64,000 nucleotides of DNA from Eledone cirrhosa (taxonomy: Eukaryota). Made by a program: the position numbers and the translations under genes. This document shows positions 14,523 through 30,904 of the stretch, piece by piece (the first letter of the stretch is position 1; each line of letters begins with the position of its first letter). The notes beneath the pieces are model-generated. The model had not been told where the DNA came from. It saw only the letters and a list, made by a program, of their open reading frames with translations, and searched no databases. The stretch is taken from the NCBI GenBank assembly GCA_964016885.1, contig OZ024741.1, forward strand, positions 52,266,001-52,330,000, given 5' to 3'.

Positions 14523-15667
14523 TAACAAATGTTACCGACTCACACACACATAAAAATAAAAATAAGAAAAGAAAAGAAAACACAAAAAAATCACGAGCAC
14601 ACGAAAACAATAAAATAAACACACAAAGAAAACAAAAAACAATAATGTCCCGCACTTCCTTCCAAAGAACAATATACTTTTCCTTTAAAACCAATAAAAA
14701 TAATCATCATCTCCCCATCTTAAAAACCAAGCAGACGCACACAAACAAACACACAAACACACACGCGCACAAACAAATACACACACAAATACACACAGAG
14801 AAAGAAACAAACAAAGGCACACACAGACACACACGCAGAGACACACACAGAGATACACACAGAGACACACACACGCAAACGCACACACACATAAACTCAC
14901 ACACAGACACACAGAGACACATACATACACACACAACGCGCACACACACGCACACACATACATACATACATACACGCACATTACAACAACAACAACAACA
15001 ACCGGAAACAATATTGTCACATGATTATACATCCAGCTGTCTAGAAAAATAAGAATAAAACAATATATGTCCACTAAAAGGAATGTTTTCCGCCATTTTG
15101 TATATGTGTGTAACAATAGGCGAAATAATGGACGCTCGTCAATGCTATACGAGACTGTTGAATATTAACACAGCCTAATAAATAAATCTATGACTAAATT
15201 AGGAAGAGAAAAATCTCATGGGAAGCCTATGCCAGCCATTTTTTTGTTTTGTTTTTGGGTGGAGGGATATCGGTGTCGTTTTTGGTGGTCTTAGTACTGG
15301 TGGTGCTAGAGGTGTTGGTGGTGCTAGAGGTGTTGGTGGTGCTAGTGGTGTTGGTGGCGCTAGTGGTGTTGGTGGCGCTTGTGGTGGATTATCATTGAGA
15401 ATGATATATATATATATATATATATATATATATATATATATATATATATATATATATATATATATATATATATATATATATATATATATATGTATACAGA
15501 CGTACAGTAGTATGTATATATATACATACATGCACACATATATATATGTACGTATGGATTCACCGAACATTTATTATAATGCTCGGTGTGTTTGTAAACA
15601 AACATCCCGTATTAAGCCGTAGTGTCTAGCAACCATCGTTGCTCATTTGTTCAACACTGACAAAGGA

Positions 15668-15710
15668 ACGCTGTACTAGTTTCAAGCTTATTAGCTATCG
15701 TCAGCAACGT
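15668..15710 (-). ncRNA. Minimal type I hammerhead ribozyme, intact core
   Basis: acgttg-CTGACGA-t agct aata agct t-GAAA-ctag-TA-cagcgt. Confidence 0.85.
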
Positions 15711-15989
15711 ATACCTTCCTGCCAGATGATTGAACGTGTCAAAGTATATACTTTCCTTATGAATATTAACGGCTGAGCAGCCCAATTTGCATATCGAGTG
15801 GGTTAATCAGCCGGGTGCACCGAAAACGATAAACGGAAAAAATGAAATTTCGTTTCATTTTTTCCGTTTATCGTTTTCGGTGCACCCGGCCGATTAACCC
15901 ACTCGATATGCAAATTAGGCTGCTCAGCCGTTAATATTCATAAGGAAAGTATATACTTTCACACGTTCAATCATCTGGGAGGAAGGTAT

Positions 15990-16032
15990 ACGTTGCTGAC
16001 GATAGCTAATAAGCTTGAAACTAGTACAGCGT
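15990..16032 (+). ncRNA. Minimal type I hammerhead ribozyme, intact core
   Basis: acgttg-CTGACGA-tagctaataagctt-GAAA-ctag-TA-cagcgt; palindromic loop III. Confidence 0.85.
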
Positions 16033-16981
16033 TCCTTTGTCAGTGTTGAACAAATGAGCAACGATGGTTGCTAGACACTGTACGGCTTAATACGGGATGT
16101 TTGTTTACAAACACACCGAGCATTATAATAAATGTTCGGTGAATCCATACGTACATATATATATGTGTGCATGTATGTATATATATATACATACTACTGT
16201 ACGTCTGTATAGATATATGTATGTACGTATACATACTTATATTTAAGTAACAGCCGTACTAAGAGTGGGAAATGAAATTTCGTTTCAATTTTTCCGTTTT
16301 TATATATATATATATATATATATATATATATATATATATATATATATATATATATATATAAATTACCGAGAATCGTATTTCGGCTATTGGAAATTAGCGA
16401 AAAACAACTCCGAGATGTGTGGCAAGCGCTCCATAGAAGCTAGTGAACTAGAGCAACAACATAAGTTAAAAGGCCAAACACACTGAGACGATGGTTAAAC
16501 CATTATCCGCACAGCCATAGAAACGACCAAGTAATTCGGGTCAAACAAATAAAATATGATTGAAAATTATACCCGGACCCTGGAAGGTTGGTAATATCCA
16601 GCATTGGGTTTCTGCAACTCCTAAATCAAGTACTGTTTGCTTAGACAAATAATGTTAAGCTTTTGGTATGATGATCGAACAAGGAAGTCACTTTCTCAAC
16701 AGGCTTTTAGTTCAATATATATATATGCATGCATATATATATATATGTATATGCATATATATATATGTATATATAATATTTCGTTTCTGAATTTGTTTAG
16801 CAAGATTCTTTATCTGAAAACGTGTGTTGAAACCGATATTGTTATACTTTGGGAGGGTCATGTTGCCAATAAGAAACACACGCACCAGTTGCTTTCACTT
16901 CAATTTATTATAATAAATTTAGGAATTTATAAATTTCCGGTTGGTTGGTTGGTTCCACAACCAGATGGTTGTTTATATATT

Positions 16982-17024
16982 GTCAAAGTTCTTTCGTCAC
17001 ATATTCTGTGACCTCTTCAGTGAC
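16982..17024 (-). ncRNA. Type I hammerhead ribozyme downstream of a PLE GIY-YIG fragment
   Basis: gtca-CTGAAGA-g gtcaca gaata tgtgac-GAAA-gaac-TT-tgac. Confidence 0.75.
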
Positions 17025-27876: not shown

Positions 27877-29572
27877 ACAACAATAAAATACTAAATACTA
27901 AATCTCTTCCTCCCAACACTGAATTTCATAATAACAGTAATAGTACTCCCGACGTCATTGTAAACCCTAGGCTAATTTCTGTAAACCCAAATACAACGTC
28001 AAACACAACTTCGCTAAATGTTCATAATCCAACTCTAAATCAAGAAACTATTATTCCTATCGCAAACAACTTCTCCAATCCAATTCCTTCTATAGATAAC
28101 ACTAGGTCACTCATTAATAATCTCCCTAATTGCAACTGCCCTATTAAAAATAAATGTCCTCTCAACAACCATTGTCTTGATAAAAACTTAATTTATGAAT
28201 GTAAAGTTATAACTAGCACCAATTCCTTCACCTATTTTGGCTCCACTTCCACCTCTTTTAAAGCTCGTCTCTATAATCATCATTCATCTTTTAAATACAA
28301 ACTTAAAAGAACCAACACGGCTCTCTCAGAACTCATATGGTCCTTGAAAGACAAAAACATTAAATATACCATCTTTTGGAAGAAGGTTTCTTCTGCGTCT
28401 TCATACTTGAACAGCTCTCTATCTAAAATCTGTAATCTCTGCCTAAATGAAAAATTTACCATTATCTCTAATCTAGATTCTATAATAAATAGACGTACAG
28501 ATTTGTTTTCTATCTGCTTGCATAAATTCCATAAGACATTTCACAAAGTATACAGCTAATATTCAATTCTTTATCAATTTAGAATCTTTTCTCAAAGGCA
28601 CATATACATACACCTCTTTTAAAATATACCCATCTTCCTACCTTACTTCAAATGGTATTATACACTCTATAATACTTGTTTACTCATTACCCTCACTCTA
28701 TCTTCACCTTGTAAAATCCTTCGTAACATATACATTTGTTTTGACGCCAGATTATTCATCCTTAATTTATTATTTTTTTCTCCCCATCATCTAACTCATT
28801 CTTAATACATATTAACTCTTTCTTCGCACATATTATCAATTCCTTCAATATACAAACCTTAACTTCACATTATTTTTCTCAAATCCTTCAATACACAAAC
28901 CTTAATAATTTTTTCTCTTCGTTAATTTTCAAATTTCCATAATACTTGTAAACATACACACAATTTTTTTGACGTTAGAATATTCATCCGCAATCCATTA
29001 TTCTTTTCTCTCTATCATCAAACTTTTTAATCTCAATACATATTAACTCCCTCTCCTTCTTCGTACATATTTTCCCTTCGTTAATTTTCAAATTCTTTTA
29101 ATTTATACATTATCTTCCAACGGTTTTCAACCTCTCTATGTAAAACAATATATCTTTTCTCAGTTATAAAAACTATCTCTTTCTCTCTATCACCCATCTC
29201 TCCCTCTCCACCTTCACTCTCACCTCCTCCCCTTTTTTTTTCATCCTTTCCACCCCCCCTCTCTAAATAAAATATTTTTCCCAATATCACACATCAATCT
29301 AAAATTACTTTCCATATGTTGATTTAAAACTGCACTATCCACAAGTGTTTTTTAACCTTCATATCATGTCCTCCTATTTTATCTGATGAAAACACAAATA
29401 TTATTGCATGATGATGTTTGTTTTTGAAATGCGCATAATAAAATACATGGAACTCCTTTAACCATCTTTTGATCTTATATATTATGTATACTCCAGTCCT
29501 ACAAACTGTAGAGTGCTTCTTATCCGATATCTGCATTGCTTTATTGTACTACAATAAAACTCACCTCCTACA
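27875..29572 (+). mobile_element. 5'-truncated PLE: GIY-YIG domain (open to 28559), long 3' UTR and hammerhead
   Basis: HNNKILN..CNCPIKNKCPLNNHCLDKNLIYECKV..YFGSTSTSFKARLYNHHSSF..CNLCLNEK..CLHK; ends in (TA)n. Confidence 0.88.
29375..29445 (+). ncRNA. Type I hammerhead ribozyme, intact core
   Basis: tattttat-CTGATGA-aaacacaaatatt..gatgtttgttttt-GAAA-tgcgca-TA-ataaaata; 8 bp stem I, palindromic stem III. Confidence 0.8.
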
Positions 29573-30115
29573 TATATATATATATATATATACATATATA
29601 TATATATGCAAACTTGCAGACAAAAATCTATAGATTCATTGTAAATATACAATATTCTAGAAGACTCATTAGCGAAAGGGGAAAATATGGCCTCAGGGAT
29701 ACCGGTAGACTGTTGTTGTTGCTGTTGCTTAGCCCCAGGTCACCACTAATTGTGTAGACCGATGATTAAAGGAGTCTCAGCCATGACCAACCCCTCATTC
29801 TCCCGGGGGATGCAATGAACATTTAGCAATACATTATCAAATGTGTCATTTTCCATTTTTTAAAAGACAGTGTGTGGTATGATGCGAGGGGGATATGGCA
29901 TTTGTAAGGTAAGTGATTAAGTAGAGAGTTCTTCATTATTAGATCAAACATATATATATATATATATATGTATATATATATATATATATTTATATATATA
30001 TATATATTTATATATATATATATATATATATATATATATATATATATATATATATATATATATATATATATATACGATATAAACAAATGGAAACTATATT
30101 TATAAAACCATATTT

Positions 30116-30178
30116 ATTTCATTATACATATTTCAAGGACACCAAGTTAAATTATGGTGTGCTTTCATCAGATAAAAT
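30116..30178 (-). ncRNA. Type I hammerhead ribozyme, intact core (related to 29375-29445)
   Basis: attttat-CTGATGA-aag c acacca..tggtgt c ctt-GAAA-tatgta-TA-atgaaat. Confidence 0.8.
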
Positions 30179-30248
30179 ATAATATAGATCAGTTTTATAA
30201 GTAAATATTGACATAGCCTTAAAGAATGCAACCATTGCTGTTGGAAGC

Positions 30249-30904
30249 TCCCGTATTAAGCCGTAGTGTCTAATACGGGATGTTTGTTTACAAACACACC
30301 GATCATTATAATAAATGTTCGGTGAATCCATACGTACATATATATATATGTGTGCATATATGTATATATATATACATACTACTGTACGTCTGTATACATA
30401 TATGTATGTACGTGTACATACTTATATTTAAGTAACAGCCGTATTAAGAGTGGGAAATGAAATTTCGTTTCATTTTTTCCGTTTATCGTTTTCGGTGCAC
30501 CCGGCCGATTAACCCACTCGATATGCAAATTGGGCTACTCAGCCGTTAATATGCATAAGGTAAGTATATACGTTCAATAATCTGGCAGGAAGGTATACGT
30601 TGCTGACGATAGCTAATAAGCTTGAAACTAGTACAGCGTTCCTTTGTCAGTGTTGAACAAACGAGCAACGATGGTTGCTAGACACTACGGCTTAATACGG
30701 GATGTTTGTTTACAAACACACCGAGCATTATAATAAATGTTCGGTGAATCGATACGTACATATATATATGTGTGCATGTATGTATATATATATATATACA
30801 TACTACTGTACGTCTGTATACATATATGTATGTACGTATACATACTTATATTTAAGTAACAGCCGTACTAAGAGTGGGAAATTAAATTTCGTTTCATTTT
30901 TTCC
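30249..30904 (+). mobile_element. ~1.5 head-to-tail tandem copies of the hammerhead repeat with a short 5' inversion
   Basis: 30271-30483 repeats 30692-30904; junction ttttttccgtt|tatcgttttcgg; 30250-30271 is inverted. Confidence 0.9.
30597..30639 (+). ncRNA. Minimal type I hammerhead ribozyme, intact core
   Basis: Identical to 15990-16032. Confidence 0.85.

Follow-up and report, generated by a model that had tools for sequence, protein, structure and literature searches.

The subject of this analysis is a window of 64,000 nucleotides from the octopus Eledone cirrhosa (GenBank assembly GCA_964016885.1, contig OZ024741.1, positions 52,266,001 to 52,330,000 of the forward strand), which contains several copies of a 430-bp repeat bearing a hammerhead ribozyme motif. 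The source assembly is 3.0 Gb in length and rich in microsatellites. Unit positions are numbered 1–430 from window position 15870, the first nucleotide of a full unit (15870..16299, + strand) that belongs to subfamily A and ends at the long 3′ end discussed below. This unit is joined head to head to an inverted arm (15491..15847, − strand; 95.5% identical to the full unit) that consists of unit positions 414–430 followed by 1 to about 345. The two arms meet within a tail hairpin at the inversion center (15831..15869), and (AT)n target sequence flanks the insertion on the left (15404..15490) and right (16300..16360). A second insertion (30271..30904, + strand; 94–96% identity) contains 1.5 head-to-tail units with a junction at 30484/30485, a hammerhead core at 30603, and a long end followed by (AT)n; a short inverted tip corresponding to unit positions of about 203–226 (30248..30270, − strand) lies at its 5′ junction. 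The fourth copy (3137..3559, + strand; 86.8% identity) is truncated at the unit junction on its 5′ side, lies within an unrelated repeat, and has a hammerhead core altered at 3267, where the first C is changed. An earlier note on this DNA had placed copies at all four of these locations, and its description of the last one (as 3140–3558) as diverged was accurate. That copy is not a decayed member of the same family, however; its 93–96% identity to 39 other full-length best matches defines a second subfamily, B.

Other properties attributed to the repeat by the earlier note were confirmed. Every copy in the window terminates in (AT)n, and the core together with stems I and II of the hammerhead is letter-identical at 15996 (+), 15704 (−), and 30603 (+). 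The unit (GC content 37%) is non-coding; in a three-unit concatemer, the longest ATG-started frames encode 49 amino acids on the + strand and 64 on the − strand. Monomers measured from cut site to cut site are 420–435 nt long in 29 loci (one sister-family locus was left out), consistent with the roughly 425 nt that had been proposed. Genome-wide, a 37-mer spanning the hammerhead has 5,032 exact matches (reversed control, 0), and the long 3′ end plus (AT)4 and the short 3′ end plus (AT)n have 2,478 and 2,408, respectively, numbers far above those of chance. A degenerate hammerhead pattern yields 26,739 matches (control, 0) and takes in subfamilies A and B as well as a longer subfamily C. All 40 scored genome matches to the subfamily A unit are 93–100% identical. 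Units of subfamily C (loci L396–L403) measure 466–538 nt, and their AU hairpin has expanded into an (AT)n tract within the unit, the length of which varies. The head-to-tail joint also occurs in contigs of all four sequencing runs of unrecorded kind that were compared, at low depth in those under the two other organism codes; these occurrences are not used here as evidence on expression or range.

The clearest indication of how the repeat moves comes from the ends of its insertions. We parsed 100 long-end and 30 short-end loci among the matches listed (of 2,478 and 2,408), all on contig C1. Two 3′ ends, first noticed in 90 loci, occur at about unit position 370 (short) and 430 (long); they are separated by 60 nt, and both are followed by (AT)n. 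The 60-nt tail that distinguishes them (16240..16299, + strand, in the first insertion) contains a predicted hairpin just before the long end. Among the 100 long-end loci, an inverted arm ends at the short site in 47, at the long site in 0, and elsewhere in 5; 47 have no inverted arm and 1 could not be parsed. Sequence up to the short end is retained in 44 of the 47 long-short loci, and the inverted arm in the window stops about 25 nt before the usual short site. The 30 short-end loci, about a third of which are insertions already present in the long-end sample, have a long partner arm in 15 cases, a short one in 0, another in 2, and none in 13. A cluster of 5′ ends at unit positions 122–128, seen in loci picked by their hammerhead, was considered as a further start site and rejected, as it is absent from the end-picked sample (4 versus 3.3 expected). 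Because the insertion target is (AT)n, target-site duplications are unreadable.

These insertions thus combine two 3′ ends, a one-sided tail, an inverted 5′-truncated arm, partial tandems, and a microsatellite target. Insertions of Penelope-like elements (PLEs) are described as comprising partial tandems and an inverted truncated copy with a tail of 30–40 bp on one end (PMC8557442, PMC3846280). The tail has been mapped to two start sites of the reverse transcriptase (RT), with both target strands being cut and extended (PMC11167929). Two autonomous PLE families of the Eledone genome, both with copies in the window, have the same two-end pattern before (AT)n; their tails measure about 40 and 90 nt. 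The ends of the 430-bp insertions are PLE ends, and we are highly confident that the element is a non-autonomous one dispersed by PLE-type retrotransposition. The two-site ends and their strict long-short pairing go beyond the earlier note, whose proposal of a retrozyme-like tandem hammerhead repeat spread by retrotransposition is supported.

PLE-type ends would also be expected if the unit were the ordinary pseudo-long terminal repeat of an autonomous PLE yet to be found, with the copies being its 5′-truncated stumps. Indeed, the tail, the inversion, (AT)n targeting, and a hammerhead with minimal stem III are all features of PLE ends (PMC8557442). What lies upstream of the unit makes this explanation improbable. 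In 236 of the 287 pieces that reach unit position 16 or lower, position 1 is preceded by the unit's own 3′ end (at least 40 nt, head to tail) rather than by a 3′ untranslated region (UTR), and most of the other 51 pieces are preceded by a shorter remnant or by an inverted arm. PLE fragments lie near 30 of 201 distinct loci, and only one is upstream in the same sense. The copies are not attached to a PLE open reading frame (ORF): no ORF encoding an RT and a GIY-YIG endonuclease, as expected of an autonomous PLE, was linked to the repeat in the loci examined, and on our reading the order ORF-then-unit occurs at none of the 201 loci save one array inserted in the (AT)n end of another PLE. This array, of 47 units, starts at unit position 212 inside that end, and the PLE upstream of it was rejected as a parent. 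No shared non-element sequence was found at the junction among 127 free 5′ flanks, 59 of which were informative after masking of the element and AT runs. Moreover, a conserved helix in the predicted RNA spans the unit junction by pairing unit positions 394–399 with 30–35 of the next unit, and its variable pair is canonical at 116 of 120 junctions. The explanation by stumps retains some room in that only two of at least five PLE families in the window were compared for ends; with those two, no homology of the unit to PLE ends was found, the few matches being other retrozyme copies or AT runs. When a PLE with the same stem III was sought by pattern, the sister retrozyme described below was returned instead. 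The suggestion that sequence upstream of the 3137..3559 copy (position 3081 in the earlier note) represents the 3′ UTR of a parent PLE did not hold, as 11 other fetched copies of that sequence continue into sequence of their own and none continues into the unit. Window positions 2790–3136 are the 3′ portion of an interspersed repeat of older age (2,263 candidates, 75–89% identity), other copies of which have their end close to (AT)n.

The hammerhead in the full unit (15975..16043, + strand) is of type I with an extended stem I; its core lies at 15996 and its GAAA at 16017, and cleavage is predicted after 16026. In unit numbers, the core lies at 127, the predicted cut after 157, and extended stem I at 106–174. 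The motif is arranged in the order stem I, core, stem II, GAAA, and a one-pair stem III capped by a palindrome. Core columns are 96–99% conserved, the free position excepted. Common variation is located at the base of stem II and at N7 and H17, which are positions free to vary in hammerheads.

The genome contains at least four related non-coding families, that of the 430-bp unit included. When further hammerheads were sought by a pattern that keeps this stem III, 5,700 matches were returned (control, 16), and 94 of the first 100 among the matches listed (of 5,700) belong to one 465–468-nt family or are a one-letter variant of it. This 468-nt family is 67% identical to the 430-bp unit over 250 nt and collinear with it across the whole monomer; it has the same short and long ends, a tail of 69–74 nt, and a canonical G-C pair at the base of stem II. 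One of its insertions contains 6 + 12 full units with 0 differences and another contains 6 units with 0 differences, whereas the average difference between full units of separate loci is 13.6 sites. The family is represented at G000:C1:30831844-30840564 (L331, L332) and by about 5,000 other matches to the stem III pattern, and it includes very young two-armed insertions with up to about 20 identical units. Apparent fixed differences between the arms of young sister insertions proved to be an artifact of gap placement in an A run. A third and more distant family, with a 436-nt period in copies elsewhere, is represented in the window by an insertion with an inverted and a direct arm (62862..63510; hammerhead core at 63359, +); this family has two ends, an inverted arm, a longer stem III, and a repeated ATGCAAAT block. 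A second small repeat is inserted in the left arm of the window copy (about 62927–63110). A 310–312-nt tandem repeat (L169:1218-1530, L056, L074), which carries a type I hammerhead with another palindromic stem III and an (AT)n end and lacks the ATGCAAAT block, is probably another retrozyme.

Outside the hammerhead, the block that contains the ATGCAAAT motif (motif at 15908..15915, + strand) is the longest stretch common to four sister families in their alignment. We take ATGCAAAT to be the octamer, a candidate promoter element; the promoter of newt satellite 2 reportedly contains an octamer. Since the sister array of greatest uniformity has an altered form of the block, it may be dispensable, and assigning it a promoter function is a guess.

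Comparison of the families also bears on the fold of the RNA. The predicted fold of the circular monomer has a z score of −9.4, or −6.2 once a long AU-rich hairpin is removed (16147..16230, + strand; helix 5 of the covariation test), and 70% of the monomer is paired. The independently predicted circular folds of the 430- and 468-nt families have 58 of 153 pairs in common, versus 4.0 ± 4.7 with randomly placed substitutions. When 51 pairs were tested in 21 natural monomers of the two families, 15 were changed on both sides and 97.8% of cells were paired; this covariation mostly represents one split between two families, and the structure was derived from folds of the same sequences. Double changes across families affect three of six stem I pairs and three of four stem II pairs. 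When all 146 aligned pairs are considered, 36 of 79 changed pairs stay canonical in an automatic alignment in which several helices are out of register. An RNAalifold consensus on gappy monomers was poor and was set aside. In three families, the short end falls within the loop of a small predicted hairpin. The unit boundary drawn in the earlier note is the long insertion end rather than a boundary of the RNA, and it falls within a predicted RNA domain.

To what extent the reverse transcripts follow the RNA across unit junctions can be read from the lengths of the arms. Among distinct long arms, 59 of 86 cross the cut site, as do 53 of 66 among short arms; 14 and 10 of them, respectively, cross it twice. 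Arms end within 5 nt of the cut site about as often as expected (long, 2 versus 1.4; short, 1 versus 1.5). Because the arms run through the cut site without a stop, the template was longer than a cut monomer, that is, a circle or an uncut multimer. Near the unit junction, arm ends are in excess (long arms of 395–450 nt, 15 versus 5.2 expected; short arms of 370–395 nt, 6 versus 2.0), in bins that were chosen after inspection; the excess may reflect a collision, on a circle, with the primer of the long start site, a protein bound to each tail, or joining via the tail hairpin. Units of one insertion agree in haplotype far more than random pairs do, though not perfectly: at 22 polymorphic sites, discordance is 0.094 between adjacent units (51 loci), 0.145 between opposite arms (57 loci), and 0.366 between random units (3,000 pairs), with a background of 0.031–0.044. 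Cut-site crossing and the young sister insertions of up to 18 identical units indirectly favor a circle, with an uncut linear multimer being the alternative.

Considered together, these findings suggest to us, at a probability of about 0.6, that the 430-bp repeat is a non-coding hammerhead element likely copied in trans by the RT of a PLE from a small circular RNA, the circle being a less certain step than PLE-type retrotransposition. Since its insertion ends carry PLE marks, the element is likely a protein-free parasite of PLEs. According to this model, tandem copies would be transcribed, possibly from an internal promoter. Neighboring hammerheads are predicted to pair through the palindromic stem III and to excise monomers of 420–435 nt, whose ends would be kept together by extended stem I and ligated into a circle, by analogy to the retrozymes of coral, mussel, and axolotl. 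A PLE protein, probably a dimer, would then nick both (AT)n strands and start cDNA at unit position 430 on one and at 370 on the other; ends at these positions are observed in the genome, and the enzymology is modeled on that of the anole PLE. Each cDNA would run past the unit junction and the cut site to a varying extent, as is observed in genomic copies. The two cDNAs would be joined head to head, or one would be lost, which would generate the single arms, partial tandems, and inversions with one-sided tails that are observed. Some arrays would later expand at the DNA level in the manner of satellites, as is seen for several.

A number of results weigh against this reading, in addition to the limits of the covariation analysis and the lack of homology to the PLE ends compared. 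Rfam returned no hammerhead match at the gathering threshold or at E 5, only microRNA-like hairpin noise, and the isolated hammerhead (52–56-mers) folds no better than shuffled sequences. In the 430-bp family, the pair at the base of stem II is U-U or C-A and stem III has a single pair, and cleavage may thus be weak. Cleavage was not needed for insertion by the anole PLE in vitro (PMC11167929). Some insertions mix haplotypes, at up to 14 of 22 sites, and in the mosaic insertions examined no switch point fell at the cut site. The uniform sister arrays belong to a non-random set of 28 stretches chosen partly for their length from 100 among the matches listed. Finally, several arrays have grown as DNA. 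One 10-unit array has the structure (AB)5, in which the inner A units and the inner B units are identical and the inverted arm is 7 and 13 sites off; a dimeric circle is not favored as its origin, as the inverted arm matches neither A nor B. The array at G000:C1:51773500-51793781, with at least 47 units, has a satellite-like, four-unit higher-order repeat with spreading core mutations, and in a young sister array a variant is confined to one arm, where 6 of 12 units carry it. DNA-level expansion therefore occurs, and rolling-circle copying is not cleanly demonstrated by long arrays.

These arrays raise the broader question of whether the repeat is a DNA-level entity altogether, such as a satellite, a fold-back element, or a rolling-circle DNA element, in which the hairpins and the hammerhead-like motif are incidental. 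Many palindromes and the large satellite-like arrays with higher-order structure are in keeping with this idea. We consider it very improbable, as it accounts neither for fixed 3′ ends combined with variable 5′ ends and strict long-short pairing nor for double-changed pairs that tolerate G-U in the RNA sense, and the catalytic core is invariant across families that are about 63–67% identical in alignment.

A rival of greater weight is a model in which a PLE inserts copies at the two start sites from an uncut, linear read-through transcript, with the hammerhead being weak or used at another step and the long uniform arrays resulting from DNA-level expansion. In vitro, the anole PLE used mainly uncut RNA as its substrate (PMC11167929), the base of stem II and stem III look weak, post-insertion expansion and mixed-haplotype insertions are both visible, and arms without a stop at the cut site fit a linear template equally well. 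Linear copying, however, can only shorten arrays, and most loci contain one or two units. Read-through transcripts should sometimes carry source flank, yet none of the 127 free 5′ flanks (59 informative) has non-element sequence at the junction in common with another. The 47-unit array has private alleles atypical of dispersed copies, double changes between families preserve the stems of the hammerhead, and the sister insertions of greatest uniformity also have two long arms. We therefore regard a linear template as a serious alternative that is nevertheless unlikely. It is tempting to go beyond the preferred circular-RNA model and speculate that Eledone harbors a radiation of viroid-sized circular RNAs whose shared, conserved fold captures a PLE dimer; two RTs 60–70 nt apart would roll round the circle and write multi-unit arms head to head into (AT)n, and an internal octamer promoter would keep the arrays transcribed. 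We advance this extension tentatively, as a possibility of lower standing than the model itself. If it is true, the genome directly records, tens of thousands of times, how a circular RNA was reverse transcribed by target priming in rolling-circle fashion, and the RNA would serve PLE loading as a cis-signal that is portable because it does not have to be related to the ends of the helper itself.

A candidate for the helper lies in the window itself. The 5′-truncated copy at 27897..29571 (+ strand) belongs to a very young PLE of the Hydra type, separate from the 430-bp element, with a long end and a hammerhead of its own (29383). All 150 scored matches to its endonuclease region are 98–100% identical, and many open frames of 820 amino acids are found; a first look returned 56,654 candidates, with a 1.1-kb 3′ UTR and a 90-nt tail (L291–L295, L299, L300). 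Its protein contains RWT (RWK-like), DKT, CNCRIKNKC (a CxCX5C linker), CNLC, and CLH, and its assignment is by motif reading rather than by a tree. Hydra-clade PLEs are described as having an RWK-like motif, DKT, the CxCX5C linker, and CxxC and CxH around the E and N residues of the endonuclease, together with a canonical hammerhead and a (TA)n target (PMC8557442). Homologues of the helper protein are 31–42% identical, and one is from Argonauta. By its youth, target, and end pattern, this PLE fits as a candidate helper of the 430-bp element, although remnants of at least four other PLEs are present in the window.

The element corresponds to the sequence-level definition of animal non-LTR (long terminal repeat) retrozymes. 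These are described as non-coding tandem units measuring a few hundred bp, with one type I hammerhead each, a GC content below 50%, thousands of copies, and a self-paired monomer that leaves the ribozyme free to fold, in genomes that contain PLEs (PMC7229834; 10.64898/2026.07.22.740005). The Eledone repeat has 420–435-nt monomers, arrays of up to 47 units, and no ATG frame above 64 amino acids; a type I motif with core, stems I–III, and covariation, though not scored by Rfam models; a predicted self-paired monomer; and PLEs in the same genome. Its non-LTR layout is judged from whole units arranged head to tail, variable 5′ ends, and 37% GC. Its one-pair stem III with a palindromic loop resembles that of axolotl HHR_Amex1, and the U-U at the base of stem II recalls HHR_Amex2. 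Circular RNA has been demonstrated for those animal retrozymes and is predicted for the 430-bp element, whose monomers lie at or above the 170–400 nt of expressed monomers. In Xenopus, 21 of 57 retrozyme families have a homologous PLE end, in contrast to the result here for the two PLE families compared, and only one of nine predicted elements cleaved (Li, Clavereau and Pollet 2026, 10.64898/2026.07.22.740005), so that predicting a hammerhead is not proof of cleavage. PLEs have been put forward as a strong candidate for mobilizing retrozymes from the circle (Cervera and de la Pena 2020, PMC7229834), and the mechanism is described as remaining open (10.64898/2026.07.22.740005). Neither one-sided tails nor inverted arms appear in the main texts of these two papers (PMC7229834; 10.64898/2026.07.22.740005); together they are the strongest signal in the Eledone element.

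PLE insertions with a one-sided tail (Arkhipova 2013, PMC3846280; Craig 2021, PMC8557442; Frangieh 2024, PMC11167929) resemble those of the 430-bp element in their partial tandems, head-to-head inverted arm, two internal RT starts, AT-rich target, and hammerhead upstream of the tail. They differ in that the 430-bp element lacks an ORF and its whole unit repeats many times, and in the length of the tail, which is 30–40 nt in those PLEs as against 60 nt here, 69–74 in the 468-nt sister family, and roughly 90 in the Hydra-type PLE of the window. Among Chlamys PLEs, non-autonomous ones such as MRC1 likewise form multicopy head-to-tail insertions by means of PLE machinery; unlike the 430-bp element, they have 3′ sequence in common with autonomous families, and canonical hammerheads are absent from most of them (PMC8557442). 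Newt satellite 2 likewise consists of hammerhead repeats in tandem, which act as dimers (cited in PMC7229834 and PMC2220036), and its reported internal promoter of the small nuclear RNA type (PMC2220036) has a possible parallel in the ATGCAAAT block. In the part of the literature covered, with supplements, Dfam, and Repbase outside the scope, no prior description was listed under hammerheads, retrozymes, or Penelope elements of octopus or other cephalopods, nor under retrozymes with inverted, tandem, target-primed, rolling-circle insertions. We class the 430-bp element as a new animal non-LTR retrozyme for which the genome gives unusually direct evidence of PLE mobilization: a PLE-specific tail and one-sided inversion in many retrozyme insertions, beside very young families and an ORF-intact PLE, in one genome. 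The RNA and the two positions at which its copying starts are thereby named, together with the target and a candidate for the enzyme, which makes the mobilization step testable in vitro, and five related monomers with one fold map RNA features that a PLE protein may read.

The remainder of the window contains further repeats. A 5′-truncated PLE with RT and GIY-YIG domains occupies 5106–7420; it has an in-frame stop at 5829 and belongs to an abundant, older family with two ends and a 40-nt tail, in which a hammerhead-like motif with a non-canonical core is present in all copies examined. Beside it, an inverted pair of 300 bp (4281–4582 and 4800–5101; 97% identity) resembles the end, with two arms, of a different element that targets (AT)n. 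Further remnants of PLEs, from at least three families, lie at 1321–1776 (−), 9740–10322 (−), 17390–17620 (−), and 18075–18782 (+), and the flanks of fetched loci hold many hammerhead families with palindromic stem III loops. Two copies of a long interspersed nuclear element, 81% identical and with endonuclease and RT frames, are located at 36638–40229 and 42470–46007, the second preceded by an ORF1-like frame (40867–41727). Finally, a short interspersed repeat of about 190 bp is present in at least six copies of 80–97% identity (12657–12846, 46213–46338, 51651–51839, 52524–52613, 53452–53608, and 62916–63109).

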